Shown piece by piece: positions 5,273 through 32,000 of a stretch of DNA of 32,000 nt. The number at the start of each line of letters is the position of its first letter. The first letter of the stretch is position 1. Position numbers and translations under genes: made by a program. Under the pieces are notes generated by a model. That model was not told the DNA's origin. It ran no database searches and was given only the letters and a program-made list of their open reading frames with translations. The stretch comes from Nitrosopumilus sp. b3 (GTDB lineage: Archaea; Thermoproteota; Nitrososphaeria; Nitrososphaerales; Nitrosopumilaceae), in NCBI RefSeq assembly GCF_014078525.1, contig NZ_MU078695.1, forward strand, positions 125,174 to 157,173, given 5' to 3'.

Positions 5273-5716
5273 ATGAAACGAGGTAGACCTACCAAAAATG
5301 ATGAAGAAAAGATCAAACAGAGAATTTTGGAATACTATGAAAAAGATATTTCGGCAACTGTTGCTGCAAAAGAATTAGGGGTTAACCCCAAAACAATTTA
5401 CAAACATTATAAAAATTGGGATGCTCAAAAATTAGGCATAGATGAAAAAGATTTTCTATCACGCATTAAAAATACAAAAGAAAGATCTATTCAATCTTTA
5501 GAGGAAGACATTATTTCATTATCCAAAGAAATTGACAGGATCGAATTTCTAATGGAAAAGTCATTACAAAATGGAAATATTTTAGAATATGAAAAATTAG
5601 CAAAATTGAAACTAAAGACTATGAATCAAAGAACAAAAACCATATCTGCAAAAATCAATCTTGTAGGAGCACCAACTGCAGATATTTTGATTAATAATGA
5701 GGGGATGTTAGCATGA
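5273..5716 (+). CDS. Terminase small-subunit-like HTH protein
   Basis: 147 aa. N-terminal helix-turn-helix ('ISATVAAKELGVNPKTIYKHYKNW') followed by a coiled-coil-like region. Sits immediately upstream of TerL with a 4-bp ATGA overlap, the classic TerS-TerL order. Confidence 0.5.
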   Translation: MKRGRPTKNDEEKIKQRILEYYEKDISATVAAKELGVNPKTIYKHYKNWDAQKLGIDEKDFLSRIKNTKERSIQSLEEDIISLSKEIDRIEFLMEKSLQNGNILEYEKLAKLKLKTMNQRTKTISAKINLVGAPTADILINNEGMLA

Positions 5717-7488
5717 CGTATAATTTAGTACAATGGAAAAAATCACATGAAAAATTAGCAAGAGTGTATTTGAAGAAAATTAACAAACTAAATCCACTTC
5801 CAATAGACATTATGGATTGGATCAAAGTTGCAAGACCAAAAGTCGAAAATAAGGAGCGAGAATTTCTTACATGTCCATTTTGGATTCCAATTTACAACGA
5901 TCCTCACAATTATCAGATGATAATTGGTGGGCGGCAAATATACAAATCAACTGCATGTACGGATTTTATCGCATGTGAGGCAACTTCGCATCCAGGAATT
6001 CAAGTATGCTATGTAACTCACGACCAAGGAAGTCTATCAGCATTTTCTAAACAAAAATTAAAGATTGGGACATTTTTAGTAAATCCAATTCTTTCAAAAT
6101 ATTTACGCAATCCTGGAAACATAGGAGAGATTTCACTAAAAAATAACAGTACAATCTATCTAGTAACTGACAACTATCAATATCGGCATTTAGAGGGAAA
6201 ATCACCCTCATTATGCATTCTAGATGAAGCTCAATACCAAGATGTAGAATATTTTGGAAGAGTGCATCAAACAATGATGGCAACAAAAGGTAAAGTGAAG
6301 GTCTTTGGGATTGGAGGAGAAGCTGGAAGTCCTTATGAAAAATTATGGAATGAGACAAATCAAATGGAATGGTTTTATGACAATCCAGAATGGCGAGAAA
6401 ATTTACAGTATGATCATAAAGGGTTGATTAAAGATCAGTATCTTGAAGAGTTGTTGAGGGGAAAATGGATTCCACAAAATAAATCTGCAGAATCATTTCA
6501 TGGGTATCACATACCACAATCAATTTTTCCCACAATTCCATTGACAAAACAAGATGCAATTGAAAAATACAAGATTCATCCTAGATTTTCAATTGAATAC
6601 CAAAAAGAGACATTGAAAGATTCAGAATTTAGATCACATGTAACTGGAACGTTTTACAAAAGTCCACATAGACCCATCACAAAAAAGATGATAGATGATT
6701 GTACAGAGTATTATAGATATTTACAACTGTTAAAAGAAGATGAAGTTAAAAAACTGAAAGAAACATTTGGTGATGAGATAACTATTGCAATGGGGGTTGA
6801 TTTTGGTTCAGGCGCTTCCAGTTTTACAGCAATATCAATTATAATTTTATGACACAAATCAAATAGAATACAGATTGCATTTATAGAGAAAAGGCATCCA
6901 GAGAATCAATTAAAACAAGCACAATATATTGCAGATTTATTTGAAAGATTTTCTTGTGATATTGGAGTTGGTGATTTGGGTTATAGTGCAAATCAAGTAA
7001 AAATAATACAAGAGGGAGGATTTTCGGTAGACTCAGGAGAGGCATTCAAAGGTGTAACAAATAATAAATTTTTTGGGTGTCGTACTATTTCAGATAACAC
7101 AAAACCCATTCAAATTTTTGATGAAACAACGGATGAGCACGGAGACCAAGTTGGTAGAATCCAGATAGATAAAACATCAAGCATAGAACTTTTGATTGAA
7201 AGTATGGAGAACATAGTATTTCATCCAGCATACCATAAGGATAAAAATAGAAGCAGGGCAAAGTTAATCATCCCATCAAAGTACGATTATGAAATAGATT
7301 TTCTCTTAACGGATCTTAATAACATAACTCGCAAAGACATTCAAGATATGGAGAAAATTATTTCAGATCCTCGTCAGCGTCCAAGAAAAGAATACAACCA
7401 CCCACCAGATTCTGTAATGTCTTTGATTTATGGAATAGTAGCATTAAAGGTGAAAGATCAAACAAAATGGCACTGGGTGAGCGGATAA
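5713..7488 (+). pseudogene. Terminase large subunit (TerL) of a head-tail virus, interrupted by one in-frame TGA at 6850-6852
   Basis: ORFs 5713..6852 and 6976..7488 are in the same frame. My translation of 6853-6975 has no further stop (HKSNRIQIAFIEKRHPENQLKQAQYIADLFERFSCDIGVGD). Walker A-like 'GGRQIYKST', Walker B 'LCILDEAQ', and RNase H-like nuclease Asp motifs 'MGVDFGSG', 'IGVGDLGY', 'HPPDSVMSL'. Confidence 0.75.
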
Positions 7489-7509
7489 AAGAAATTGTTG
7501 AGCCTATAA

Positions 7510-7535
7510 AGTATCTATTGTATGCATACTATACT
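7510..7535. promoter_or_regulatory. Candidate operator copy 1 (AGTAT-N5-GTATGCATAC-T-ATACT) upstream of nurA
   Basis: The perfect 10-bp palindrome GTATGCATAC is at 7520-7529, preceded by AGTAT with a 5-nt spacer and just downstream of TATAAA (7505-7510). The same architecture occurs at 14191 and 15331. Confidence 0.5.
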
Positions 7536-7657
7536 CATATTTCTTAATACGGGTTCCATTAGAGATTTTTCCATGAAACAAGCTAAAACTCTGATAACTA
7601 ACAGTCAGATTATTACTCTAGGAAAATATCATACCACTCAGAGGGGAGAAATTACAC

Positions 7658-8755
7658 ATGAATGAAGATCCAGTAAAAAGTATGATTGCAGAATTGGGTG
7701 CTCATCTTTCACAAAAAGAGCATTCAGATATTGTTTTAAACAATGGGAATGGAAAGCAGTTTCTCATTGCACCTTCAGAGTTTGTTGAAATAAAATCTAC
7801 AGATGCACCACGTAAGATTGCCTTTGTTGATGGGGGTGATGGTCCATTAGAAGAGTCACCAAACTTTTTAATCACAATTAATCGGGTGTACTTTTCATTG
7901 TTCCAGGGGAAAAATAGAATAAAACCTAAAGAGAATCCACGAGTTCAGTTCTTCTCTTCTGTGACGTCAAATATTCAAACCGAAAATGGTAAAAAAATAG
8001 TTAGTTATGATACAAAGTTATTTCCTCACACTACGGAGGATAAAAAATATCTCCCAGCAGAGTCTGATCTGACTTCAAACACAGAGAGTACTACAGTTTT
8101 GCAAGGCTCAAGATTGAATTCATTAGGAAGACGATTTGCTGAATGGCAATTGGCAATTCATGTTGTAGAGTCAGAACTTGAGAAAGGAGACATGATAGTT
8201 ATGGATGGGTCTCTGCAGACTAATTTTAAAAATGAACTAAAATATGCAAATAGATTGTATGATTTGGCAATAAGTAAGGGAGTAATTGTGTGTGGTTTGG
8301 CAAAGACTAGTAGATTAATTACAGAGTCGGGTCACCCGTTACTTGCACGAGTTGCAGAGATTGCTGAAGACGTTCCATTTGGAAAATGGTATGTCAAAGT
8401 TGCAGAAGAGGTTTCAGGGGATGATAGAGGGTTTATGCTTGCAGTAAAGTTTCATGAAAAATCAAGATACGTATTTAGATTTGAGATTCTTCGTGAACAA
8501 TTTTCTTCTATGAGTCCTGATGAGTTGAACTCAGTTCTTGCTAGTTTGGTTGAGAATTCCCAGGATGTAGCCATGATTGGCTATCCATATGGGGCAATTG
8601 ATGCAGACAGATTTGCTCAAGTTAGGCGTGATGAGTTGGGAATGTATCAAGGGTTTATTCTATCAGAGAAACTCAGAGACCCTATTTGGAAGAGGCTGCA
8701 AAAATATTCTGCTAGTCTGTCAGCTCATGATACACTGAATGGAGTGACTAGTTGA
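7658..8755 (+). CDS. nurA: NurA 5'-3' nuclease
   Basis: 365 aa. Catalytic-type motifs 'IAFVDGG' and 'MIVMDGSL' plus 'GLAKTS' fit the NurA domain. First gene of the nurA-herA-mre11-rad50 cluster, with a purine-rich GAGGGGAG upstream of the ATG. Confidence 0.8.
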
Positions 8756-10332
8756 TGGATGAGATTTCAATTGTAGGTCAAGTAGTTGGCGGAAGTTTTG
8801 GAGACATTGTAATTCGTCAAAAAGCAGGAACCAATCTAGAGATTGGAGATTTGATGGTCTCCGAAGAGAACGGTTCGTTTTTGATTTTACAGGTATTTGC
8901 ATTAGAGTATGGTAGTCAGATTCAAGATAAAATGCAGCAGATGATGTCAGGTGTTAATTTAGAGCAAGGAATAGTTGATGTGAACTTTTATGAACCAGAA
9001 TTTGTAAACTATGTACTAGCTAGAATCAAACCTCTTGCTCGAGTGTATAGAGAAAATAATGATGTAAAGATTCCAAAATCATTACCATCATTTTTTAACA
9101 AATTACGATTAATTGACAAGGATGATTTGAAATTCCTGCAAAAGGAGAAAGAGTCTATCTTTGTAGGACACATTCGAAGTGGCAGTAAGATAATAAAAGA
9201 GGCAGAAGTTTGGCTGCCAGCTGAAGATGTGTTTTCACATCATGTTTTAATTCCAGCTACTACGGGTCGTGGAAAATCAAATTTGGTGAAAACTATTTTG
9301 TGGCATTTGCTTGATGCAAATAAAGTGGGTGCACTTGTTTTAGATGCACACGATGAATACTATGGACGTACAGGACCTGGACTAAAAGATCATAGTAAAG
9401 CAAAAGATAATCTTGTTTATTATACACCATCTCACCCACCAGTTGGCGCAAACAGACTAACAATCAATCTTGAATCAATAAGACCAGATCACTTTGAGGG
9501 AATAATTGAACTATCAGACCCGCAACTTGCTGCAATGCGAATGGCATTTAGAAAAAATCCTAGAGGATGGATTTCTGATTTGATGAAAACCAGTGCAGTT
9601 GATGCAGGAATGGAGCCAGGTGGACGTGCAGAATTTGCTGCGGCAACTTTGATGGTCGTTCAAAGGAAATTACGCCTAATTTTGAGCCTAGATGTGGATG
9701 AAGAGCAGGTAATTGTATCAAGACATGAGGTATTTGATAGTACAACTAGAGGTCTGAATACCGTTGATGACATAGTTCGAGATATAGAGCAGGGTAAGGT
9801 CGTTGTTTTAGATACATCTCGATTAGGTGATGAGGCAGAGTTGATTGTTGGAAATATTATTGCTTCAAAATTATTACAAAAATACAAAGACGCTAAAGCA
9901 ACCGGTGAGCTTGATAGAAAACCAGTTGCCACCATAGTTATTGAAGAAGCACCACGTGTAATTGGAGAGGATGTTCTAAAATCTCGAAATGATAACATCT
10001 ATGCCACCATAGCTAAAGAAGGACGTAAATTCAAAGTGGGTTTGACTGCAATTACTCAGTTGAGCAGTGTGATTCCAAAAACAATTCTTGCAAACATGAA
10101 TACCAAAATTATTTTAGGAAACGAGATGAAGCAAGAAAGAGAGGCAATTATTGCATCAGCTTCTCAAGACTTGTCGGAAGATGACAAAAATATTGCAAGT
10201 TTGGATAAAGGCGAGGCAATTATTTCTAGTATCTTCGTTCCATTTGCAATGCCAATCAAAGTTCCTTTGTTTGAAGATATTGTAAAAAGTAAAGGATCGT
10301 CACCGCAACCTGGTAAGACAAAGGTGTTCTAG
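8752..10332 (+). CDS. herA: HerA hexameric DNA translocase/helicase
   Basis: 526 aa. N-terminal HAS-barrel-like region, Walker A 'ATTGRGKSN', Walker B 'VIEEAP', FtsK/HerA-type architecture. The start (TTG 8752 or ATG 8755) overlaps the nurA stop. Confidence 0.9.
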
Positions 10333-10333
10333 T

Positions 10334-11590
10334 TTGTTATTTGCGCATTTATCTGATATCCATCTAGGTTTTCAAAAGCACGAATCATTGCAGAGAATAG
10401 AGCAACAAGTATTTGAGAAATCGATGGATGAGTGTATTTCTCGCAAAGTAGATTTTGTTTTAATTCCAGGGGATTTGTTTCACGTAAATATTCCGGAGAT
10501 GCGAGTTCAAAAGTTTGCATTTGCAAAGTTTCGTCAGGTCCATGATGCAGGAATTCCAATCTATGTGGTTTATGGTAGTCATGACTTTTCTCCAGTTTCA
10601 AACTCTGTAATTGATCTGCTAGCAGAAGTTGGGTACATCACCAAAGTAACTCGTGCAACAAGTAATGAGGATGATACGATATCTTTGGATTTCCTAGTAG
10701 ATGAGAAAACAGGTGCAAAAATTGCAGGATTGTCCGGACTCAAAGTTGGAAAGGACAGAGAATGGTATGAGAAACTAGATAGGAATTCTTTAGAGGCAGA
10801 GCCAGGATTTAAGATATTCCTATTTCATGGAGGAGTCTCAGAAATGAAGGCTGATTCAGGCATGGATGGGGACCATATGCCACTTTCTTTGCTACCTAAA
10901 GGATTCGCATACTACGCAGGAGGACACATGCACAAATTCAATCATCAGTCATTTGATTCACATCCTAATGTAGTGTATCCTGGAACTCCATTTGCAGGAT
11001 ATCATGCAGATTTGGAAGATAATGCAAATGGGCAAAAACGCGGATTTGTTCTAGTAGAGTTTGATGATGTGGTAAAGTCAGTGGAATTTGTAGAGATTCC
11101 AAACACATCATATGAAATAATTGAAGTTAATGCAGATAACAGAAAATCGGATTCTATTAATCAAGAACTAGTTGAAAAAAGTAAAGACATTGATCCTGCA
11201 AATAAAGTGATAATAATTAAAGTCAAAGGAGAACTAACATCAGGCAAGACTGCAGATGTAGATATTTCTGGGATTAGAGAAGAGTTAAACTCTCGCAATG
11301 CGATGTTCATCAATGTTTCAAAGAACGGATTGACTTCAAAAGAGTATTCAATTACAGAGGCAAAGGGGGCAAACAAAGAAGAGATTGAAACAAATGTGTT
11401 TTCAGAAAACATTGGACAGTTACGATTTGATCATCCAGAATTGTTAGGAGATGAAGGAGTCAAACTTGCAAAAAAGTTGTTGCGAGAGTTAGGACAACCA
11501 GTACTAGTTAATGAGAAGAGAAACGAGTACACTCCAAGAGTTCGTGATAATGCTTTAGCAATTTTAGGATTAGACAAAGATGATTCTTAA
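10334..11590 (+). CDS. mre11: Mre11 nuclease (calcineurin-like phosphoesterase)
   Basis: 418 aa with a TTG start 1 nt after the herA stop. Phosphoesterase motifs 'HLSDIHLG', 'GDLFH', 'YGSHD', 'GGHMH'. Confidence 0.9.
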   Translation: MLFAHLSDIHLGFQKHESLQRIEQQVFEKSMDECISRKVDFVLIPGDLFHVNIPEMRVQKFAFAKFRQVHDAGIPIYVVYGSHDFSPVSNSVIDLLAEVGYITKVTRATSNEDDTISLDFLVDEKTGAKIAGLSGLKVGKDREWYEKLDRNSLEAEPGFKIFLFHGGVSEMKADSGMDGDHMPLSLLPKGFAYYAGGHMHKFNHQSFDSHPNVVYPGTPFAGYHADLEDNANGQKRGFVLVEFDDVVKSVEFVEIPNTSYEIIEVNADNRKSDSINQELVEKSKDIDPANKVIIIKVKGELTSGKTADVDISGIREELNSRNAMFINVSKNGLTSKEYSITEAKGANKEEIETNVFSENIGQLRFDHPELLGDEGVKLAKKLLRELGQPVLVNEKRNEYTPRVRDNALAILGLDKDDS

Positions 11591-14000
11591 TAGCATCATT
11601 ATTGATAACATTAGAAGTTATGAGCACGAAGAGGTAGAGTTTCCTCGAGGGATATCTTTGTTTGAAGGAGATATTGGTTCTGGAAAATCAACTGTACTCA
11701 TGGCAATAGAGTTTGCACTGTTCGGTTTGGGTTCTCAAAAAGCTGAGAGTTTACTTGCAAAAAAGTCTGAAAATGGAAGTGTTATTTTGGATTTTTCAGT
11801 AGACGGTGAAAAATATGAAATTAAAAGAACGTTGCTGAGAAAAAAATCAGGAGTCAATCAAGATCCTAAAAATTCCTGGATAAAGATTGATGGCGAGAAA
11901 GAACCATTATCACCATCTGAACTAAAACAACGAGTGTTACAGATATTAAAATTCAACGAGCCAGCAGATCCTAAAGCTGAGAGTAAAATATTCAGATATG
12001 CTATATTTACGCCTCAGGAAGCCATGAAAGAGGTGCTTTTTGACTCTGCAAAGAGACTAGAGACTATTCGTAAAGCCTTTGGGATTGAAGATTACAGTAT
12101 TGCACACTCTAATGCACGTGAAGTACTTACTGAGATCAAAGCAAAAGCAAGAGTGTTTCAAGAAAGATTCAGTAATATTTCAGAATTAGAGTCAGAGATT
12201 ACAGAATCAAATAAAGGGATAACAGAGACAGAGAAAGTAATTTCTAAAACCAAAGAACAACTTAGTAGTTTAGAGAATAACGAAGTACAAAAAACCAATG
12301 AACTCAAAGAGTTGCAGGCAAAAAACAATGAAAAAATAAAACTAGAATCAAAAAAAGAAAACATTACAGATAAGATAGAATCTGCAAAACAAAATGTTGA
12401 AAAGATAGAGCAAGAGTTTGCAGAAATTGAATCAGAATTAAAAGAGAATAATGAAAGATTTGAAAAATTGATGAGTGTAGAAAAACCTCAAACAGAGAAA
12501 AGCATACCAGATATTATATCTGAAATAAAAAAACTTCAGGAGATTAATGACAAGAAAATAAGACTAGAGACAGAAAAAGAAACAATTACAGATGATCTTG
12601 TAGAACTAAAAGAGAGTTTAGGTGAGAAGGTAAATTCAGACAAGTCAGTTTTAGAGAAATCTCTGCAAGATTTAGAAGAAGAGAAAAAAGGTTTGGAGAA
12701 ATTCTCTGATGAGATAAAGCAACAACAAGATAAAATCAAAGAAGAGCAAATCCAAAAAAATACGCAGAAAAAATCATTAGAACAAGATATTTTAGAATTT
12801 TCTAAACTTGGAAATGCATGTCCTACATGCAAACAAGAAATTACTAAAGAGCATCATCATGCCCTAGTTGATGAAAAACAAAAGCTAGTTAACAGTCTTG
12901 AAAAGGAAATAAAAACAGTTACAGATTCATTTTTTGAATCAAGTTCAAAATCAAAAGAGATTGAATCAAAGATAGATTCCTATGAAGAAGAAATCTCAAA
13001 GATAGAAAAAATCATTCCAGGAATAGAAGAATTTATTGAAAAATCCTCAAAATTAAAAGAAATTGAGGCTGATTTGCAAGAAATTACACCCCCAGACACT
13101 AAAGAGTATGGCGAGAATCCCATAGAGTTTCTATCTGAACTAAAAGACAGAGTTTCAGAGTATAGAAATGCACAAGAGCAGTTACAACAGATAGCACAAA
13201 GAAGACAGAAGATTCAAGAAAAAATAGAATCAGATCAGTCAAGTGCAAATACGTTGTTATCAGGTATTAAAGAAAATGAATCAAAATTAAAAGAAATTGA
13301 AAAACAGTTAGCCAAATTTGGAAGATTGGAAGAAAAAGTACAATCTAAAGAAGATGAACTAGGTGAAATCAGGAAAAAAATTGCTCAAGCATCAGGAATT
13401 ATTGCTGCATCTCAAGAAAAATTAAACAATGAACAAGTCAAAATTTCTCAAAATGAACAAAAAATTTCTGAATCAAAACAATGGGAGGAAAAATACAAGA
13501 AATTTACTCAGTTCCAGGAATGGTTAGAATCATTTTTTATTCCAACCATATCACAGATTGAAAAACAAGTATTATTGTCAATATTGCAGAATTTCAATGA
13601 GACATATACCAGATGGTATTCTATTCTAATTGAAGATCCAACCAAAGAATCCAGAATTGATGAGAACTTTACACCAATTGTGAATCAAGACGGATATGAT
13701 CAAGAGATTGGATTTTTGTCAGGAGGTGAAAAAACAAGTATTGCATTAGCATATAGATTAACATTAAACTCTCTAATGAGAAAAGAGACAGAATCAATGA
13801 AGTCTAATTTATTAATTTTAGATGAACCTACCGATGGATTCTCTAAGAATCAATTGGGAAAAATTAGAGAGTTACTTGATGAATTAAAATCAGAACAAAT
13901 CGTACTTGTCTCTCATGAAAAAGAGCTTGAAACTTATGTAGATAATATTTTTCAAATTTCAAAAGAAAATGGGTTATCAAAAATTTTAAGAATTAATTAA
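11580..14000 (+). CDS. rad50: Rad50 ATPase (SMC-like, zinc hook)
   Basis: 806 aa. Walker A 'GDIGSGKST', a long E/K-rich coiled coil, zinc hook 'CPTC', ABC signature 'LSGGEKT', Walker B 'LLILDEPT'. The start overlaps the mre11 end by 11 nt. Confidence 0.9.
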   Translation: MILNSIIIDNIRSYEHEEVEFPRGISLFEGDIGSGKSTVLMAIEFALFGLGSQKAESLLAKKSENGSVILDFSVDGEKYEIKRTLLRKKSGVNQDPKNSWIKIDGEKEPLSPSELKQRVLQILKFNEPADPKAESKIFRYAIFTPQEAMKEVLFDSAKRLETIRKAFGIEDYSIAHSNAREVLTEIKAKARVFQERFSNISELESEITESNKGITETEKVISKTKEQLSSLENNEVQKTNELKELQAKNNEKIKLESKKENITDKIESAKQNVEKIEQEFAEIESELKENNERFEKLMSVEKPQTEKSIPDIISEIKKLQEINDKKIRLETEKETITDDLVELKESLGEKVNSDKSVLEKSLQDLEEEKKGLEKFSDEIKQQQDKIKEEQIQKNTQKKSLEQDILEFSKLGNACPTCKQEITKEHHHALVDEKQKLVNSLEKEIKTVTDSFFESSSKSKEIESKIDSYEEEISKIEKIIPGIEEFIEKSSKLKEIEADLQEITPPDTKEYGENPIEFLSELKDRVSEYRNAQEQLQQIAQRRQKIQEKIESDQSSANTLLSGIKENESKLKEIEKQLAKFGRLEEKVQSKEDELGEIRKKIAQASGIIAASQEKLNNEQVKISQNEQKISESKQWEEKYKKFTQFQEWLESFFIPTISQIEKQVLLSILQNFNETYTRWYSILIEDPTKESRIDENFTPIVNQDGYDQEIGFLSGGEKTSIALAYRLTLNSLMRKETESMKSNLLILDEPTDGFSKNQLGKIRELLDELKSEQIVLVSHEKELETYVDNIFQISKENGLSKILRIN

Positions 14001-14134: not shown

Positions 14135-14190
14135 AATATGTAAAATTCCGAGTCTATTCCAGATAAATTTCCAAAAATAGAAAATTAAAT

Positions 14191-14220
14191 AGTATTCAAA
14201 GTATGCATACTATTGTCATG
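14191..14220. promoter_or_regulatory. Candidate operator copy 2 (AGTAT-N5-GTATGCATAC) upstream of a TATA-like element and micro-ORF
   Basis: Palindrome core at 14201-14210. The 30-bp block matches 15331-15360 at 26/30 positions. A TATA-like 'cataataatat' (14224-14234) lies about 25 nt before the ATG at 14253. Confidence 0.5.
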
Positions 14221-14252
14221 TTTCATAATAATATCAAATTCAAACCTAAAAT

Positions 14253-14333
14253 ATGCAAAAACAAGCAATGTATCCAAGAATTATCAGAGAATTCGAAGAG
14301 GATAGAGATGAAGAGCCACTCTTTTATTCCTAA
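14253..14333 (+). CDS. Micro-ORF (26 aa, MQKQAMYPRIIREFEEDRDEEPLFYS), paralog of 15393..15515
   Basis: Not in the ORF track because it is too short. It shares the YPRIIREF core with the 40-aa ORF at 15393. The three nucleotide differences in those 8 codons are all synonymous. Spacing from the TATA-like element suggests a leaderless transcript. Confidence 0.45.
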   Translation: MQKQAMYPRIIREFEEDRDEEPLFYS

Positions 14334-14363: not shown

Positions 14364-14591
14364 ATGAATAGGGCAAGAAATCAATCTATCAAAAGAACAG
14401 CAAGAAATTATTGATTCAAAGAAAAACACATCGTAGTTTCAAATCCAGGAACTGGAAAGACCACCACATTATCTCTCAAAGAAATAAAATTACTAACAGA
14501 CGGAGTAAATCCTGAAGATATTCTATGTATCACGTTTACTGAAAAAGCTAAAAAAGAAATGTTTAATGAGATTTATGATAATTCAAATTAA
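14364..14591 (+). pseudogene. N-terminal relic of a UvrD/PcrA-type superfamily-1 helicase (frameshifted and truncated)
   Basis: Frame 1 reads 'INLSKEQQEIIDSKKNTS*' and frame 0 continues 'KHIVVSNPGTGKTTTLSLKEIKLLTDGVNPEDILCITFTEKAKKEMFNEIYDNSN*'. Together these give the UvrD motifs Q, I (Walker A, GTGKT) and Ia (TFT..A..EM). The frame switch is at the A-run near 14419-14426. The gene ends after about 75 codons and overlaps the 3' end of the convergent regulator by 9 bp. Confidence 0.55.
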
Positions 14592-15329
14592 AAATTCGGC
14601 AGCATTTTTGCCCTCTTCAGTAATTTTTATCCAACGATTCCTACCAATCTTTTCAATCTCGATAAACTTCCAATCTTTTTCTAATGGTTCAATGATATTT
14701 TTATCTAAACTTGCAAATCTAGCTTGGGAGTGATTTGATTTTTCAGCATTAACTGTAATGATTCCTTTCTCTTCTGTAATTTCTGCCATCTCTTTTTTAG
14801 TTAGTTTTTGATTTTTATGTTCATGAACTATTTTTAATGCATCTAATAATTTTGGTTTTGGTGTTTGAATCTCATATGTTGGTAATGGAATTGTATCTTT
14901 GATTCCAAAGGATTGTTGTTTACCCTCAAATGCTGCATACTTTTCAGGTTCTGCATAAAATGGTTTTAGATTTTCACAGTGTTTGAGTACCATACATGCC
15001 ATCATGCATGCGATTGCTTGGATTTTAGATCCTGATGCGACATTGACATAGATGTAGTTATTTTTTTCTTCCTCAATGATATCTTTGATTGATTTTATTG
15101 CTTTAAACAAACTCAATCTATCAGCATATGCAATCTTTACTTCTACACCGAGTTTTTTGCATTCTTTTTTTATTTTCTCCAAGTATGGTGCTGAAAGATC
15201 AGTAGTACGATTGTCATGTGATATCAACCACAATTTGTCAGCCTTTGTCTGCTTGAGAGGTATGATGATTCGGTCTACTTCAAAACCTAAAGGGGCAATG
15301 TGAACTCGAAATGTGGCTAGATTAGTCAT
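14583..15329 (-). CDS. Csa3-like regulator: N-terminal CARF-like Rossmann domain plus C-terminal winged helix-turn-helix
   Basis: 248 aa. The N-terminal pattern 'RVHIAPLGFEVDRIIIPL', 'DKLWLIS', 'YIYVNVASGSKIQAIACMMA' is collinear with my recollection of Csa3 ('YFVTMGFNETFLLRLL', 'DSLVIVV', 'IISDLTMGMRMINTL'). The C-terminus 'LTKKEMAEITEEKG...GRNRWIKITEEGKNAAEF' looks like a wHTH. The call is by architecture only; no search was done. Confidence 0.55.
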   Translation of the reverse strand: MTNLATFRVHIAPLGFEVDRIIIPLKQTKADKLWLISHDNRTTDLSAPYLEKIKKECKKLGVEVKIAYADRLSLFKAIKSIKDIIEEEKNNYIYVNVASGSKIQAIACMMACMVLKHCENLKPFYAEPEKYAAFEGKQQSFGIKDTIPLPTYEIQTPKPKLLDALKIVHEHKNQKLTKKEMAEITEEKGIITVNAEKSNHSQARFASLDKNIIEPLEKDWKFIEIEKIGRNRWIKITEEGKNAAEFLI

Positions 15330-15330
15330 T

Positions 15331-15373
15331 AGTATGTACAGTATGCATACTATTGTGATGCTATATAATAATT
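15331..15373. promoter_or_regulatory. Candidate operator copy 3 plus strong TATA box in the divergent regulator/small-gene intergenic region
   Basis: AGTAT-N5-GTATGCATAC with the core at 15341-15350, followed by 'tatataataatt' (15362-15373). That 12-mer is identical to the one upstream of nirK. ATG 15393 lies about 26 nt from the TATA centre (leaderless geometry). The palindrome lies between the TATA and the regulator ATG at 15329. Confidence 0.55.
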
Positions 15374-15392
15374 TCTATGCCTAAGAAACACC

Positions 15393-15515
15393 ATGAATCA
15401 AACAAAAACAATTCAAAATGAAGGATTAAACTCTGGAAATCTTTTCTATCCCAGAATTATCCGAGAGTTCGATGAAAAAGACGAACCAATAATGTATGGA
15501 GGAAGATTTGATTAG
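15393..15515 (+). CDS. Micro-ORF (40 aa, MNQTKTIQNEGLNSGNLFYPRIIREFDEKDEPIMYGGRFD)
   Basis: Paralog of 14253..14333 (YPRIIREF core, acidic DE(E)P-[LI]-[FM]-Y tail). First ORF of a tightly packed plus-strand operon. Confidence 0.5.
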   Translation: MNQTKTIQNEGLNSGNLFYPRIIREFDEKDEPIMYGGRFD

Positions 15516-15517
15516 AA

Positions 15518-15682
15518 ATGAAAATTACTAGAATTCTTCCAAAGTTTCTTGCAAAAACATACCAGGAAGAAGATTTGAGACGTGCAGAAATCCAGCTACA
15601 ATATCACAAAGGTATGATCAGAGTTTGGGAGAAAAGATGCAATGAAGGGCGACAAGAATTACAGAGGTTGAATCAAAAATGA
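15518..15682 (+). CDS. Small hypothetical protein (54 aa, MKITRILPKFLAKTYQEEDLRRAEIQ...)
   Basis: The ATG is 2 nt after the previous stop, and its own stop overlaps the next ATG (ATGA at 15679-15682). Predicted helical and basic. No recognisable family. Confidence 0.4.
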   Translation: MKITRILPKFLAKTYQEEDLRRAEIQLQYHKGMIRVWEKRCNEGRQELQRLNQK

Positions 15683-15891
15683 AACTCGGTAAAATAATCC
15701 AAAACCTTAACATGAAAAATATCAATCAAGGAGTTGACATCTTCAATAAAGCTGTTCAGGATTTCGGAGATTCTATGGATTCACTGAATAAAGAAATGTC
15801 AGATGATATTGAAAAATCAAACAAGGAATCCAAAATTAGAGAGAAAAAGAACAAGGAAAATTTAGATAAAATTTGGGGGAAAAGGAAATGA
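15679..15891 (+). CDS. Small charged hypothetical protein (70 aa)
   Basis: ORF-track entry. K/E/D/N-rich and helical. ATGA overlaps at both ends suggest translational coupling. Confidence 0.5.
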   Translation: MKLGKIIQNLNMKNINQGVDIFNKAVQDFGDSMDSLNKEMSDDIEKSNKESKIREKKNKENLDKIWGKRK

Positions 15892-16283
15892 TCAAAACTG
15901 AATTTTTTGATGATAGTTATAACAAAGTTGAAGAAAGTACAGCAGAGATTATAGTTCAGTCAATTTTTGATAAAGATGGTAATTTACAAAAAAAGATAGA
16001 ATGGACTCCAAAGAAAAAGACAGGTTATTCAAGAACTACTCAGGTAAATGATGATATTAGATACGAATTTCTTTCACAAGATGTAAAAAATCATTATTTA
16101 GATAATGTGCTAGGAATTCAAAGGGCAATTGATTTACTTTGGAGATATCACAGTCAAGAAGAAAGTATTTCTCAAAAAAGAAAAATTCTAAGTTCCATAT
16201 TAAATGGATATAGTAAAATCAACTTTGCAATAATGAGTTTTGATCATGAATTAAAACGAGAAAAAGGAGGTAGTGGGTACTAG
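15888..16283 (+). CDS. Hypothetical protein (131 aa from ATG 15888; the ORF track gives an alternative TTG start at 15873)
   Basis: ATG 15888 forms an ATGA overlap with the upstream stop and is preceded by 'aaagga'. No family recognised. Confidence 0.55.
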   Translation: MIKTEFFDDSYNKVEESTAEIIVQSIFDKDGNLQKKIEWTPKKKTGYSRTTQVNDDIRYEFLSQDVKNHYLDNVLGIQRAIDLLWRYHSQEESISQKRKILSSILNGYSKINFAIMSFDHELKREKGGSGY

Positions 16284-16576
16284 TGTCTGAAACTCTCAAA
16301 GATACCCACTCTAAGAGCCTATCAGAGGCATTTGTAAATTCTTTTGGAAGTTATCCAATTGGGTATGGATTAGGAATAGTTATTTTACCATTATCAGTAG
16401 GATGGATTCAAGAAGACCCGCTAACTGTAAATCTAATAATTACTGGGATTTATGCAACAGTTTCATTTGCCAGGACCTATTTTTATCGTAGAGTATTTGA
16501 AAAATTTGGAATTGATGATAATTTCATCAAACTAGGAATCAAAGGAGTAAAAAAACTCAGGAGATTCAAAAAATGA
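16283..16576 (+). CDS. Small two-TM membrane protein
   Basis: 97 aa. The GTG start shares one base with the preceding TAG. Two hydrophobic helices ('IGYGLGIVILPLSVGW', 'LIITGIYATVSFA') are followed by a basic tail 'RTYFYRRVFEKFG'. The pattern (S..E...N...G ... S..R.Y..RR.F) resembles a small membrane protein family I recall from phage genomes. Unverified. Confidence 0.55.
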   Translation: MSETLKDTHSKSLSEAFVNSFGSYPIGYGLGIVILPLSVGWIQEDPLTVNLIITGIYATVSFARTYFYRRVFEKFGIDDNFIKLGIKGVKKLRRFKK

Positions 16577-16782
16577 CTGAATCAAAACCATCATGTCCTA
16601 ACTGCAATAGTGAGAATGTTGCATTTATCCTATGGGGATATGTTGGAGACATGCATTCAATTGAAGAAGAGTTAGAAAAAGGAGAGATTGTTTTGGGAGG
16701 ATGTATTGTATCTAGTAACGATCCTAAATGGAAATGCAATGATTGCCACCACAGATGGGGGGTTAGAGACGATGATGAATGA
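16573..16782 (+). CDS. Zinc-ribbon protein (CPNC...CNDC)
   Basis: 69 aa. 4-bp overlap with the upstream gene. Two CxxC pairs flank 'GEIVLGGC'. Acidic C-terminus. Confidence 0.6.
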   Translation: MTESKPSCPNCNSENVAFILWGYVGDMHSIEEELEKGEIVLGGCIVSSNDPKWKCNDCHHRWGVRDDDE

Positions 16783-17094: not shown

Positions 17095-18060
17095 TTGTGT
17101 TGTATGTTTACATCTGCTTCTAAAACAGCATTTGTTTTTTCATTTATTGTTCTAATCAGTATGGGTATGTTGTTAGGGCATACGCATGCTCAAACAAATT
17201 TTGATTTTGGTGATGCTCCGGATGGCGGTCCTACGGGATATTCTACAGGTATTCTGTTAGGAGGTGCACAATTACCTCAAACTGGCAACTTCCCTTCATT
17301 GTTAGCAAATGACGGTGCTAGAACTATTACTCAATCTGCCACTTTGGGTTCTGCATCTACGTCTGAAAGTGATGCTAACATTACTGATGCAGACGCTGAT
17401 GATGATGGTCTAATTCAATTTGGAATTCAGCTAATATCGATACCAGCAGTAGGTACGCTTAACGTAGAGGTCGATTCTGTATCTGGCGGAACTTATTATC
17501 TCAACGCAGTAGCTGATCTGAATCAAGATGGTGAATGGGGCGGATTTGGAATTAATGGTGAGTCTGAATGGATTGTCCAAAATGAAATTGTCCCAATTTC
17601 ATCTGGTATTTTTACAAGCCAACCTTTTGCATATGGAAGTGGTAATCGAATCCCTGAAGATACATGGGTTAGAATAGCACTGACTAGTGAACCTGTCCCA
17701 AATAACTGGGATGGTACTGGTGTATTCAATGATGGTGAGATTGAAGATCATTTCATCCACGTTGATTTTGCAGGTAACTCTCCTCCTACTCCTCCTACTC
17801 CTCCTGCAATCATTATCATCGTTATCATAATTATCATAATTTTAATAATTATCATAATTCTGATAATCTTGATAATTATCTTTAAGATTACTTGGTTAAT
17901 TTGGATTGTTTTGGCCTTACTGGTAGTTGTGGTGGTCTTAGTTGTGATCGTATATGTGATTACAATTGAAATTACAATCTGTGATTCCATGTGCTATGAT
18001 GTACCTTCCAGTACTGTACCTCGTGAGAAGATTCCTTCTACAGAAATATTTGATGGCTAG
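17095..18060 (+). CDS. Secreted GEVED-domain-like protein with a PT linker and an extreme Ile/Leu/Val C-terminal membrane region
   Basis: TTG start and a signal-like N-terminus. 'FDFGDAPDG', 'ANDGAR', 'DADADDDG', 'ADLNQDGEW' and 'GEIEDHFIHV' match the pattern I recall for GEVED domains. These are followed by 'PPTPPTPP' and about 75 residues that are almost all I/L/V. Confidence 0.6.
   Translation: MCCMFTSASKTAFVFSFIVLISMGMLLGHTHAQTNFDFGDAPDGGPTGYSTGILLGGAQLPQTGNFPSLLANDGARTITQSATLGSASTSESDANITDADADDDGLIQFGIQLISIPAVGTLNVEVDSVSGGTYYLNAVADLNQDGEWGGFGINGESEWIVQNEIVPISSGIFTSQPFAYGSGNRIPEDTWVRIALTSEPVPNNWDGTGVFNDGEIEDHFIHVDFAGNSPPTPPTPPAIIIIVIIIIIILIIIIILIILIIIFKITWLIWIVLALLVVVVVLVVIVYVITIEITICDSMCYDVPSSTVPREKIPSTEIFDG
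17824..17877 (+). repeat. Six in-frame tandem copies of a 9-bp unit (ATCATAATT and variants) encoding III/LII triplets
   Basis: Read directly: atcataatt atcataatt ttaataatt atcataatt ctgataatc ttgataatt. Lies inside the poly-Ile segment of 17095..18060. Confidence 0.85.
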
Positions 18061-24181: not shown

Positions 24182-24693
24182 ACAAACATTCAATCATTAC
24201 AGGAATTGCAATAATAGTAATTGTGATTCCTTTTTTGGTTTCTGGATTAAACATTCTTGGAACACAGACATTAGAGTATAGATGGGGAGGTCCTGGTCAA
24301 TTTAGTTTCTTTGCAATGTCCAATCATGGGGATATTGAATTCTGCAATACAATGCCGTTTTGGACCAGCTTTCAAAAATACGAGGTCGCATTATTTTATG
24401 ATTCAAAGCACATAGGTTCATTTGTAGTAAATCCTTTGATAATCAATCCATTATCATCACAGGTACAATCAGGGATTTTTACATCAGAAGAGATTGCAGC
24501 TACACAGCATGTCTTTATGACTTTGGATTTTGAGTTTGATGGTGGAGATATCAGACTAGATCCAAACAAATTCATCACAGTTATTCAAATCGATACTCCA
24601 ATTATAGGAATGATTCCATATTCAACTACAACGCAGATATCAGGATTTGATTTTGACAAAATAATGAATTCAGATAACTTGTCTTGTGATTAG
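24178..24693 (+). CDS. N-terminally anchored membrane protein
   Basis: 171 aa. N-terminal TM 'IITGIAIIVIVIPFLVSGL'. Translationally coupled to 23522..24181. Confidence 0.5.
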   Translation: MNKHSIITGIAIIVIVIPFLVSGLNILGTQTLEYRWGGPGQFSFFAMSNHGDIEFCNTMPFWTSFQKYEVALFYDSKHIGSFVVNPLIINPLSSQVQSGIFTSEEIAATQHVFMTLDFEFDGGDIRLDPNKFITVIQIDTPIIGMIPYSTTTQISGFDFDKIMNSDNLSCD

Positions 24694-25556
24694 TTTTTAC
24701 TTTTACTTGCTTTAGAAATAAGTGCTAAAATCACTCCAACAGAACCTGCAACACCAAATGCTACAAGTAAGGAAATTACCATTTGTTTACCTACACCTTG
24801 TGGAGTTGTCACAGATGGTTTTGGAGTTGAGTCAAGTACACATGCTCCATCTTTTAGAATGGTTCCTGGTCCACATCTCTCATCAAGTACACATGCTCCA
24901 TCTTTTAGAATGGTTCCTGGTCCACACTGAACTTTTGGTGTTGTTACAGTTGGTTTTTCCTCAACTTTAGGTGGCGTCACAATAGGTGTTTCTTCTGGGG
25001 TTTCTTCTGGGGTTTCTTCTGGGGTTTCTTCTGGGGTTTCTTCTGGGGTTTCTTCTGGGGTTTCTTCTGGGGTTTCTTCATCTGGAATTGTTGTTCCACC
25101 AAAGGTTGAACCAATAATTTCAATTTCTTCAGTACCTGCAGGTAAATCAATACTTAGAGTTCTACTTTGAGTAGTAGTTTCAGTTTCAGTAAAAGATGGT
25201 TCATCCCCATCAACTAAAATAATAAAATCATCATCTAAGCCATCAAAAGTTGAATCAAAGAAAGAACGCTCAAATGTAATATCTAACATCCCATCAGAAT
25301 CTGGGACATCTACAGTTAGAATCAATGAAACAAAATCAAGATCAGCTTCAATGCCATCAAGAGTCATTCCAGTTGCAGTGTAATCAATATCATATGACGT
25401 ACCTTCAATATCAACAGATATTGTTTCAGCATATACCAAAGCTGAAGCAATTATTGTAAATAGTACTAATCCAAGTGAGAGTTTCAACAAAGAATTAACA
25501 TTAGGAAAATGCCTTAGTTTGTCAGATTGCATTTTATCCATATTCATATTTTGCAT
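24690..25556 (-). CDS. Surface protein of the same paralog family, with an (EETP)8 stalk, a duplicated Cys-loop module and a C-terminal TM anchor
   Basis: Body motifs 'SYDIDYTATG', 'FIILVDGDE' and 'EEIEIIGST' match 3392..4006. These are followed by EETP x8, 2x 'CGPGTILKDGACVLD' and the TM 'MVISLLVAFGVAGSVGVILALI' with a basic tail. Confidence 0.65.
   Translation of the reverse strand: MQNMNMDKMQSDKLRHFPNVNSLLKLSLGLVLFTIIASALVYAETISVDIEGTSYDIDYTATGMTLDGIEADLDFVSLILTVDVPDSDGMLDITFERSFFDSTFDGLDDDFIILVDGDEPSFTETETTTQSRTLSIDLPAGTEEIEIIGSTFGGTTIPDEETPEETPEETPEETPEETPEETPEETPEETPIVTPPKVEEKPTVTTPKVQCGPGTILKDGACVLDERCGPGTILKDGACVLDSTPKPSVTTPQGVGKQMVISLLVAFGVAGSVGVILALISKASKSKN
24832..24926 (-). repeat. 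Tandem duplication: identical 44-bp blocks at 24832-24875 and 24883-24926 (period 51 bp), encoding CGPGTILKDGACVLD twice
   Basis: Read directly from the sequence. In frame with CDS 24690..25556. Confidence 0.9.
24985..25080 (-). repeat. Eight tandem 12-bp units (GGGGTTTCTTCT on the plus strand) encoding EETP x8
   Basis: Read directly. The first and last units each carry one substitution. In frame with the CDS. Confidence 0.95.
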
Positions 25557-31883: not shown

Positions 31884-32000
31884 TTATTCTTTCTTTGGTG
31901 CTTCTTTACCTGGTTCTTCTTTCTTTGGTGCTTCTTTACCTGGTTCTTCTTTCTTTGGTGCTTCTTTAGCTGGTTCTTCTTTCTTTGGTGCTTCTTTAGC
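31884..32000 (-). CDS. 3' end of a CDS truncated by the window edge, encoding the decapeptide repeat EP(G/A)KEAPKKE
   Basis: The minus-strand frame is open from the window edge to TAA (complement of 31884-31886). The repeat is in frame. Too short in this window to appear in the ORF track. Confidence 0.5.
   Translation of the reverse strand, partial: AKEAPKKEEPAKEAPKKEEPGKEAPKKEEPGKEAPKKE
31887..32000 (-). repeat. 30-bp tandem repeat, 3.8 copies, running off the window
   Basis: Units at 31887-31916, 31917-31946, 31947-31976 and 31977-32000 (partial). Units differ only by acc versus agc (Gly versus Ala on the coding strand). Confidence 0.95.

Follow-up and report, generated by a model that had tools for sequence, protein, structure and literature searches.

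Transcription factors of the Sulfolobales named Csa3a and Csa3 (Sso1445, SiRe_0764) combine a CARF domain with a winged helix-turn-helix (wHTH) domain and are associated with a type I-A CRISPR-cas locus. Csa3a of Sulfolobus islandicus binds the promoters of nurA-mre11-rad50-herA, nurA-herA and dpo2 (PMC5587795). The CARF-wHTH protein MM_0565 of Methanosarcina mazei binds its own promoter (PMC7465815), and in Haloferax mediterranei HFX_2341 (Crr) has a repressor role with no connection to CRISPR (PMC11434293). Every CARF family is known to include members unlinked to CRISPR-Cas (PMC4012209). Here we analyse a regulator of this type from Nitrosopumilus sp. b3, encoded by a DUF6293-family gene of 248 codons with an ATG start (14583..15329, minus strand) in a stretch of 32,000 nucleotides (contig NZ_MU078695.1, positions 125,174 to 157,173), which is referred to below as the window.

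Csa3 is the best structural match to this regulator (6wxq, 2wte and 6w11), and the pocket motifs of the two proteins are situated in the same loops, with a sequence identity of 11-12% by Foldseek. Csa3 differs in being ~210 rather than 248 residues long and in its association with a CRISPR-cas locus; the regulator belongs to a clade largely devoid of CRISPR-Cas, its operator is unrelated in sequence to that of Csa3, and the operator is paired with a conserved micro open reading frame (micro-ORF). HFX_2341 shares the Pfam domain HFX_2341_N with the regulator and is likewise unlinked to CRISPR genomically, vertically inherited in its clade and a predicted repressor. In contrast to the regulator, it comprises 308 residues; its reported regulon is broad and metabolic, and there is no report that ties it to nurA or a micro-ORF. 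MM_0565 resembles the regulator in being described as a CARF plus wHTH protein; it is a dimer with Csa3a as its closest structure, and its influence reaches beyond the CRISPR locus to other genes, among them a casposon cas1-solo gene. It differs in adjoining a type I-B CRISPR locus and in binding CRISPR leaders. The analysis presented below points, with a probability of about 65%, to a CARF-wHTH regulator whose operator regulon comprises its own promoter, micro-ORFs and the nurA operon, and which is tuned by a ligand of the CARF domain.

Family, fold and ligand pocket of the regulator

Both Pfam domains of the DUF6293 / HFX_2341-like family score above their gathering thresholds and stand in the expected N-to-C order. 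Residues 8-131 (14937..15308, minus strand) match HFX_2341_N (PF19810; E = 6.6e-36, 123.8 bits against a gathering score of 30) and form the CARF domain, which is also supported by the structure model, by Foldseek and by an alignment of 105 sequences. Residues 149-246 (14592..14885, minus strand) match the C-terminal winged helix of DUF6293 (DUF6293_C, PF22665; E = 3.6e-25, 88.8 bits against 27), in agreement with the structure model. A weaker N-terminal match to Csa3_N (1.1e-8, 35.6 bits against 27) passes at the domain level only, and further weak matches of the same half are to CARF_Card1 and Cas_APE2256. The PADLOC profile PDLC01847, "CARF3--CARF", aligns residues 7-247 with profile positions 5-235 of 239 (1.7e-73), and 16 of the 19 PADLOC profiles listed next are again CARF3, a label which, from the profile names and general knowledge, we take to denote the Csa3-like CARF-wHTH group. 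At the level of whole families, the NCBIfam Csa3 model TIGR01884 (cas_HTH) gives 33 bits against a cutoff of 60.2 with an alignment confined to the N-terminal half, and the HFX_2341 equivalog NF051475 gives 19.9 bits against a cutoff of 500. Judged by these low scores, the regulator is therefore neither a true Csa3 nor an HFX_2341 orthologue; its profile matches place it in the named DUF6293 / HFX_2341-like family and the CARF3 group. The first-pass annotation had called the protein Csa3-like, which is apt for its closest solved structure and does not extend to membership of the NCBIfam Csa3 family.

The best 120 homologues are 78-92% identical to the regulator, and those with names are Nitrosopumilus and Nitrosarchaeum proteins called "DUF6293 family protein". 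An exhaustive HMMER search of 1.84 billion representatives returned 635 clusters at E<=1e-3, of which 317 reach E<=1e-10; most members have ~250 residues and the architecture of the 248-residue regulator. One cluster holds a Halorubrum protein that is named both DUF6293 and HFX_2341-domain. Many of the database homologues (P0006-P0120) are annotated with 255 rather than 248 residues. In one related locus (related loci are numbered here with the prefix L), L010, an ATG within the operator palindrome AGTATGCATACT lies in frame and adds 7 residues, a probable gene-caller start; the ATG of the same palindrome in the window (15340-15351) is out of frame. The likely true length is 248 residues, and the 255-residue starts are probably mis-calls. 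We also note a haloarchaeal (Halorubrum-type) member that is divergent from an operon of DUF2797 and Piwi/Argonaute genes (L124 / L125, 4213-8828), a region which also holds GmrSD, HNH-repeat protein and AAA genes. In its intergenic region of 135 nt, AGTAT(T/C) is repeated three times, which recalls the TAGTATG half-site described in the next section. A literature search on DUF6293 found no paper other than the HFX_2341 study.

The AlphaFold model obtained from 102 diverse sequences reached a confidence score (pLDDT) of 95.2 and a pTM of 0.87, and it replaced a model from 25 close homologues that was unusable (pLDDT 60). It reveals a Rossmann-like beta-alpha domain followed by the wHTH, which bears out the division into a CARF-like N-terminal half and a winged-helix C-terminal half that had been read from the sequence at the outset. 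The best Foldseek match in the PDB is Csa3 in complex with cyclic tetra-adenylate (cA4) (6wxq_A, E = 2.2e-9), aligned across both domains. All 50 best matches are CARF proteins, among them apo Csa3 (2wte), Csm6, Can2, Card1, Cam1 and CARF ring nucleases, and no unrelated fold was found for the N-terminal domain. At the sequence level, the single protein gave no match to PDB chains, and the CARF structures were reached by the family profile and the fold search only; the profile matched Can2/DUF1887 and Card1 at E<1e-4, and Sso2081 and Csm6 at E of 0.1-0.3.

Conservation of the pocket was assessed in 105 aligned sequences, namely the window protein and 104 relatives of ~26-49% identity. In the model, motif 1 (L14-G15-F16-E17-V18-D19-R20) forms the beta1-alpha1 loop after the strand 8-13, and motif 2 (N96-V-A98-S-G100-S-K102) forms the beta4-alpha4 loop after the strand 92-96. 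N96 is invariant (105/105), G100 is found in 103 sequences, R20 in 101, G15 in 100 and K102 in 85 (81%). Position 98 is Ser in 89 sequences and Ala in 16, the window protein being one of the latter. R8, H10 and M113 are also more than 90% conserved in alignment A2. The canonical pocket residues of a CARF domain, which the first-pass annotation had singled out for inspection, rank among the best-conserved positions of the family. The motif N96-V-A/S98-S-G100-S-K102 fits the generic CARF signature of the beta4-alpha4 loop, (D/N)-x-(S/T)-x3-(R/K) (PMC8844856). The cA4-binding motif 1 of Csa3 is Phi-G-F-(N/D)-x-zeta-F (PMC8844856), of which the Phi, G, F and hydrophilic positions are kept, with E17 in place of N/D and R20 in place of Phe. 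Across the family, position 17 is Glu in 77 sequences, Asp in 20 and Asn in 4, and R20 is nearly invariant. The regulator probably has a functional nucleotide pocket, the specificity of which may differ from cA4.

The operator and the genes behind it

The operator was defined by a 23-nt position weight matrix (PWM), built from sites found by aligning the 90 nt upstream of the regulator gene in loci of GTDB species genomes. Its consensus is an outer inverted repeat, TAGTATG-N9-CATACTA, and the inner palindrome AGTATGCATACT is part of the operator in Nitrosopumilus. In the 32 kb of the window the PWM reaches at least 10 bits at three places only; 20 shuffles gave 0-2 each. Operator O1 (15330..15352, 36.7 bits), which reads TAGTATGCATACTGTACATACTA toward the DUF6293 ATG, contains the exact palindrome at 15340-15351, and O2 (14190..14212, 23 bits) contains it at 14200-14211. 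Both are located in a 58-nt direct repeat (repeat family D2; 14178-14235 and 15318-15375, 78% identity) that flanks the regulator gene. O3 (7509..7531, 25.1 bits; TAGTATGCATACAATAGATACTT on the minus strand) lies upstream of the nurA operon and holds the palindrome with one mismatch at 7519-7530. The common palindromic site noticed in the first-pass annotation is the core of these three operators.

An AT-rich, TATA-like box, CTATATAATAATTTC (15361..15375), is shared by the divergent starts on either side of it. Alignment of the upstream regions shows that the corresponding block AATTATTATATA is conserved among loci that span 54-91% protein identity, and its spacing suggests that it serves as a bidirectional TATA box. 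The layout is constant: the AATTATTATATA block is followed by the operator, which ends 0-3 nt before the DUF6293 ATG, and the divergent ATG is ~65 nt away. Within the same range of protein identity, the PWM detects the operator at the regulator promoter in 80 of the 83 Nitrosopumilaceae loci that have upstream DNA, and nearly every site of at least 18 bits in 1.28 Mb of loci is at a DUF6293 promoter or at the promoter of a second micro-ORF. An exact operator-like string is also carried by three IMG/VR contigs of low GC content (L086-L088), where it was treated as probable coincidence. In L088, which encodes MCM and RadA-like genes, this is because the string is part of the segment that codes for the hydrophobic N-terminus of an ORF (MKVSTVSIVSLVCILMM); the match in L086/L087 likewise translates as a hydrophobic stretch.

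The wHTH of the model consists of helices 159-170, 178-187 and 197-219 and strands 223-228 and 231-236. The predicted recognition helix includes Q202-A-R-F-A-S-L-D-K-N-I-I, and the wing includes G229-R-N-R-W-I. Where the operator is kept, the recognition helix QARFASLDKNII and the wing (GRN/TRWI) are nearly invariant, while L021 and L022, which have the most divergent promoter repeat, are altered in both and carry QVRYASLQNNII. This co-variation with helix and wing supports DUF6293 as the predicted binder of the operator.

Two unannotated, paralogous micro-ORFs with the common motif YPRIIREF(D/E) start behind O1 and O2 on the plus strand. Micro-ORF1 (15393..15515; 40 residues, MNQTKTIQNEGLNSGNLFYPRIIREFDEKDEPIMYGGRFD) has its ATG 40 nt past O1, and its transcript is presumably leaderless because of this distance; micro-ORF2 (14253..14333; 26 residues, MQKQAMYPRIIREFEEDRDEEPLFYS) has its ATG 40 nt past O2. 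An ATG follows the end of the operator at 40-41 nt for O1, O2 and O3, and also for most of the secondary sites that other genomes contain. Across the family, the divergent micro-ORF encodes 22-43 residues with an ATG ~65 nt from that of DUF6293. Loci of Nitrosopumilus, Nitrosarchaeum and Nitrosotenuis have the core [FY]PRIIREF[DE], and those of the Nitrosotalea type have YPKVKSVFE. In 56 unique sequences of the core, the entropies at the three codon positions are 0.50/0.58/1.23, which is indicative of protein coding. The microprotein belongs to no Pfam family. A search of micro-ORF1 in a database of 5.8 billion proteins, which is insensitive for queries of 40 residues, returned the self-match only, and the microprotein is therefore unannotated. 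In ~40 Nitrosotalea-type loci the micro-ORF occupies the 137-nt gap up to a convergent gene and hence stands alone.

In several genomes the divergent position is taken by a PIN-domain gene or another gene instead of the micro-ORF. Seven such genomes contain a second site, and in five of them (L002, L006, L012, L014 and L020) a second operator ~1.35 kb away precedes a YPRIIREF micro-ORF. In L005, L006, L012, L015, L022 and L030, the micro-ORF is replaced as the divergent partner by an ORF of 137-139 residues, ~64-71 nt upstream of the DUF6293 start on the opposite strand; the L005 copy matches Pfam PIN.

Behind micro-ORF1, a packed operon of overlapping or abutting small genes extends along the plus strand (15518..16782). 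It consists of ORFs of 54 residues (s54, 15518-15682), 70 residues (s70, 15679-15891) and 136 residues (15873-16283), a DUF7220 membrane protein (16283-16576; Pfam 1.2e-14, phrog_4276) and a Zn-ribbon protein of 69 residues (Zn69, 16573-16782). Homologues of s54, s70, DUF7220 and Zn69 are found near DUF6293 in many loci of otherwise different context.

O3 is located between a terminase relic and nurA, with its promoter (TATA) side toward nurA. The predicted regulated operon nurA-herA-mre11-rad50 (7658..14000, plus strand; assigned by Pfam) comprises nurA (7658-8755; NurA), herA (8752-10332; DUF87/HerA), mre11 (10334-11590; Metallophos) and rad50 (11580-14000; SMC_N / Rad50 zinc hook). It is preceded by an ORF of 30 residues (7573..7665, plus strand) that starts 41 nt past O3 and overlaps the ATG of nurA. 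Many Nitrosopumilus loci have the core of this ORF, ITNSQIITLGKYH, upstream of nurA, but in some of them the reading frame is lost; it could represent a small gene, or else a conserved 5' leader or DNA element. The site in the O3 position upstream of nurA is also present in L011, which has the gene order of the window. A metagenome scan with NurA gave 35 loci, and those that extend at least 150 nt upstream, 27 in number, were counted. An operator 120-127 nt upstream of the nurA ATG is found in 17/27, with 11 distinct site sequences; 16 of the 17 sites read toward nurA, and the remaining one, in L104, has about the same score on either strand. Wherever a locus (1.8-7 kb) has this operator, it is the only site of at least 18 bits, and the layout at nurA, in which a CATGTTTCTTAATAC box follows the operator and precedes the ATG, is conserved. 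The predicted operator upstream of nurA would parallel the link made by Csa3a in Sulfolobus, here in a clade largely without CRISPR.

Proposed circuit and competing explanations

The arrangement can be rationalised by a single circuit. DUF6293 would be a presumably dimeric transcription factor, with a Csa3-like CARF sensing domain and a winged helix predicted to bind TAGTATG-N9-CATACTA. The position between the TATA box and the start is the classical one for archaeal autorepression; at its own promoter the operator lies between the shared TATA box and the ATG, and would fit autorepression. At the outward promoters, the operator is just upstream of the TATA box, which would be consistent either with activation or with occlusion of transcription factor B. 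The units so driven would be (i) micro-ORF1 with the small-gene operon, (ii) micro-ORF2 and (iii) the short ORF with nurA-herA-mre11-rad50. DNA binding would be altered when a nucleotide-type ligand occupies the conserved CARF pocket, and a cellular signal would in this manner govern production of the microprotein and, for this lineage, of the end-resection machinery for double-strand breaks, without CRISPR-Cas. Several observations weigh against this reading. The link between operator and regulator consists of the site position at the regulator's own promoter and one co-variation event, as L021 and L022 are close relatives. The site upstream of nurA is absent in Nitrosarchaeum (L003), in L019 and L023 and in 10/27 of the metagenomic NurA loci, and control of nurA would therefore be lineage-specific. 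Motif 1 of Csa3 is only partly kept, and the substitutions by E17 and by R20, the latter in place of the adenine-stacking Phe14, mean that cA4 may not be the ligand. Finally, the scans covered the window and ~+/-10 kb around the homologues, and the regulon may be much larger, as for HFX_2341.

The last point leads to the alternative that DUF6293 is a broad housekeeping or global regulator like HFX_2341, with many metabolic targets, of which the micro-ORF and nurA sites are the visible few. It differs from the circuit proposed above in the size of the regulon and shares its mechanism. Deletion of HFX_2341, which is itself unlinked to CRISPR, alters many transport and metabolism genes (PMC11434293), and a wide role would suit both the conservation of the gene across the Nitrosopumilaceae and its ordinary, fixed context in ~40 Nitrosotalea-type loci. 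The first-pass annotation had itself held that a widely conserved housekeeping regulator would speak against its proposal, and the family-wide conservation and the syntenic Nitrosotalea-type loci come close to that description. However, the confinement of the sites of at least 18 bits in 1.28 Mb almost entirely to DUF6293 and second micro-ORF promoters, together with the singular operator of each NurA locus that has one, argues for a small regulon, and the function of HFX_2341 is not transferable in view of the NF051475 score given above. A global role is therefore considered rather unlikely.

Distinctly improbable is the explanation that DUF6293 represses a cryptic mobile element integrated in the genome, or what is left of a provirus, with the operators, small ORFans, PIN and exonuclease genes and terminase relic as parts of the element, and that its adjacency to nurA-rad50 reflects an insertion hotspot. 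The neighbours of the regulator do vary. In the window, L003/L013, L011, L019 and L023, the gene is situated between rad50 and HEAT/cupredoxin genes, in varying orientation; in the window it is inverted with respect to Nitrosarchaeum, and the window has extra small genes. Other marine Nitrosopumilus have it at different places, where its neighbours are a DUF4011 helicase, PIN, a DEDD-like exonuclease, small ORFans or DUF7220. It travels with small ORFans, with DUF7220, which has a PHROG match, and with PIN and DEDD-exonuclease-like genes. In the window the gene is flanked by the 58-nt direct repeat and abuts a frameshifted, truncated fragment of a UvrD-like helicase (14415..14591, plus strand; Pfam UvrD-helicase 3.4e-12 for a 54-residue piece). 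Walker A and motif Ia are retained in this N-terminal pseudogene fragment, which extends into the stop codon and 3' end of DUF6293 and is a scar of past rearrangement. The terminase relic (5273..7488, plus strand; phrog_675) ends 20 nt before O3 and consists of an HTH small-subunit-like gene (5273-5716), the ATPase part of the large subunit (5713-6852; phrog_675, 1.8e-18) and an ORF of 170 residues with no family match (6976-7488). Its homologues lie ~3 kb from DUF6293 in L067. A similar TerS/TerL relic has been described in Ca. Nitrosopumilus koreensis (NitKor-E1), and such relics in Nitrosopumilus have been classed as cryptic integrated elements (PMC6563490). The truncated UvrD and the TerS/TerL relic suggest a recombination-prone island. 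The virus-like neighbours claimed in the first-pass annotation are reduced to the terminase relic and DUF7220, and no other virion genes were found in the window; the resection operon that it named beside them is present.

Against a mobile origin stand the presence of the regulator in almost every Nitrosopumilaceae locus sampled, at 54-92% identity and with a fixed promoter architecture, and its syntenic position in the ~40 Nitrosotalea-type loci, where it is accompanied by an SDR gene, a metallophosphoesterase and a 180-residue protein. With the protein as query, no relative was found among the 2.9 million viral contigs of IMG/VR, and the viral structures of BFVD gave only weak, generic Rossmann-like matches and no relative. 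The window showed neither an integrase nor an att-like structure, and the nurA-linked operator is present in many loci whether or not a terminase relic is there.

The remaining explanation, in which the CARF domain is a dimerisation scaffold without sensing or a ring nuclease for cyclic oligoadenylate and DUF6293 a constitutive autoregulated repressor, draws on the absence of a known source of cyclic oligoadenylate for CRISPR-poor genomes (PMC7848895), on the replacement of Phe14 of Csa3 by Arg and of N/D11 by Glu, and on the motif 2 Lys, as in ring nucleases, with the CARF-HTH ring nuclease Sis0811 as the fourth Foldseek match, yet it is improbable in either version, since the strongest conservation in the family at the pocket positions is unexpected for a mere scaffold and the catalytic motif GxS/T of ring nucleases, located within motif 1 (PMC8844856), was not found in the regulator, which has G15-F16-E17 instead, with E/D/N at position 17 family-wide.

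Some further features of the neighbourhood may be added. In L002, a 183-residue DEDD/RNase-H-like exonuclease gene (10739-11290, minus strand) converges on the 3' end of the regulator, and a 494-residue HHH + RNase_H_2 (DUF2779-like) protein is encoded behind DUF7220 (8024-9508, minus strand); both are further nucleic-acid-processing genes in the regulator neighbourhood. In the window, a GEVED-domain secreted or membrane protein (17095-18060, plus strand) contains an extremely Ile-rich segment of low complexity, with 9-nt tandem repeats, ATTATCATA x 7.7, at 17780-17880. The GC content along the window is ~0.29-0.41 per 1-kb step, which together with the nearest homologues indicates a marine, Nitrosopumilus-like ammonia oxidiser as the host.

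A CARF regulator outside CRISPR

The first-pass annotation was right that cas genes and CRISPR arrays are absent from the window. Pfam detects no cas family in any scanned ORF of at least 90 residues in the 32 kb, PADLOC detects none among the nine other window ORFs that were run besides DUF6293, and no CRISPR-like repeat array was found in the window. The called genes of the related loci inspected contain no cas gene or array either, and Rfam and tRNA scans of the window were empty. Two repeat regions consist of coding repeats and are not CRISPR: a perfect 44-nt direct repeat with a spacing of 51 nt, followed by a perfect 12-nt x 7.7 tandem repeat, at 24832-25079, inside an ORF with no family match (24690-25556, minus strand), and a 30-nt x 3.7 repeat at the end of the window (31887-31998). 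Free-living Thaumarchaeota are reported to have 0-2 CRISPR-associated genes, with the exception of N. adriaticus NF5 with 4 (PMC7848895). In the loci compared here, the regulator is conserved across marine and soil ammonia-oxidising archaea that are mostly without CRISPR. It had been proposed at first that a nucleotide- or second-messenger-sensing switch was repurposed for control of a DNA-damage or anti-virus response. Control of the end-resection operon gains comparative support from the operator that precedes nurA in the window, L011 and the 17 metagenomic loci; the anti-virus part is without direct support, given the absence of viral relatives, and "repurposed" is an uncertain term for a gene so widely conserved and, in the Nitrosotalea-type loci, in a stable housekeeping context.

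Tentatively, and as a possibility more doubtful than the circuit of the window itself, the Nitrosopumilaceae may keep a lineage-wide, CRISPR-independent CARF circuit, in which a nucleotide messenger, read by DUF6293, would switch on the microprotein (YPRIIREF / YPKVKSVFE) and, in many marine lineages, NurA-HerA-Mre11-Rad50. The link between Csa3 and repair would then predate CRISPR adaptation or have no dependence on it, and a new effector or co-regulator would be found in the microprotein.

The protein family is already named and classified, and the protein alone is no surprise. The novelty seems to lie in the operator, in the paired microprotein and in the way nurA-herA-mre11-rad50 are wired in a lineage-specific manner. 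The recovery of a microprotein missing from the gene calls indicates that comparative promoter analysis can recover small genes that have been missed. The ammonia-oxidising Nitrosopumilaceae are among the most abundant archaea of the ocean, and to our knowledge almost nothing is known of their transcription factors or of their responses to DNA damage and viruses. If the circuit is real, it would furnish a sensor domain in search of a ligand, together with a small regulon and a defined operator. The coupling of a Csa3-type sensor to NurA, HerA, Mre11 and Rad50, so far read as serving the acquisition of CRISPR spacers, would then exist without CRISPR, and the regulon would be a concrete and testable one in a host group that is ecologically important and poorly understood.

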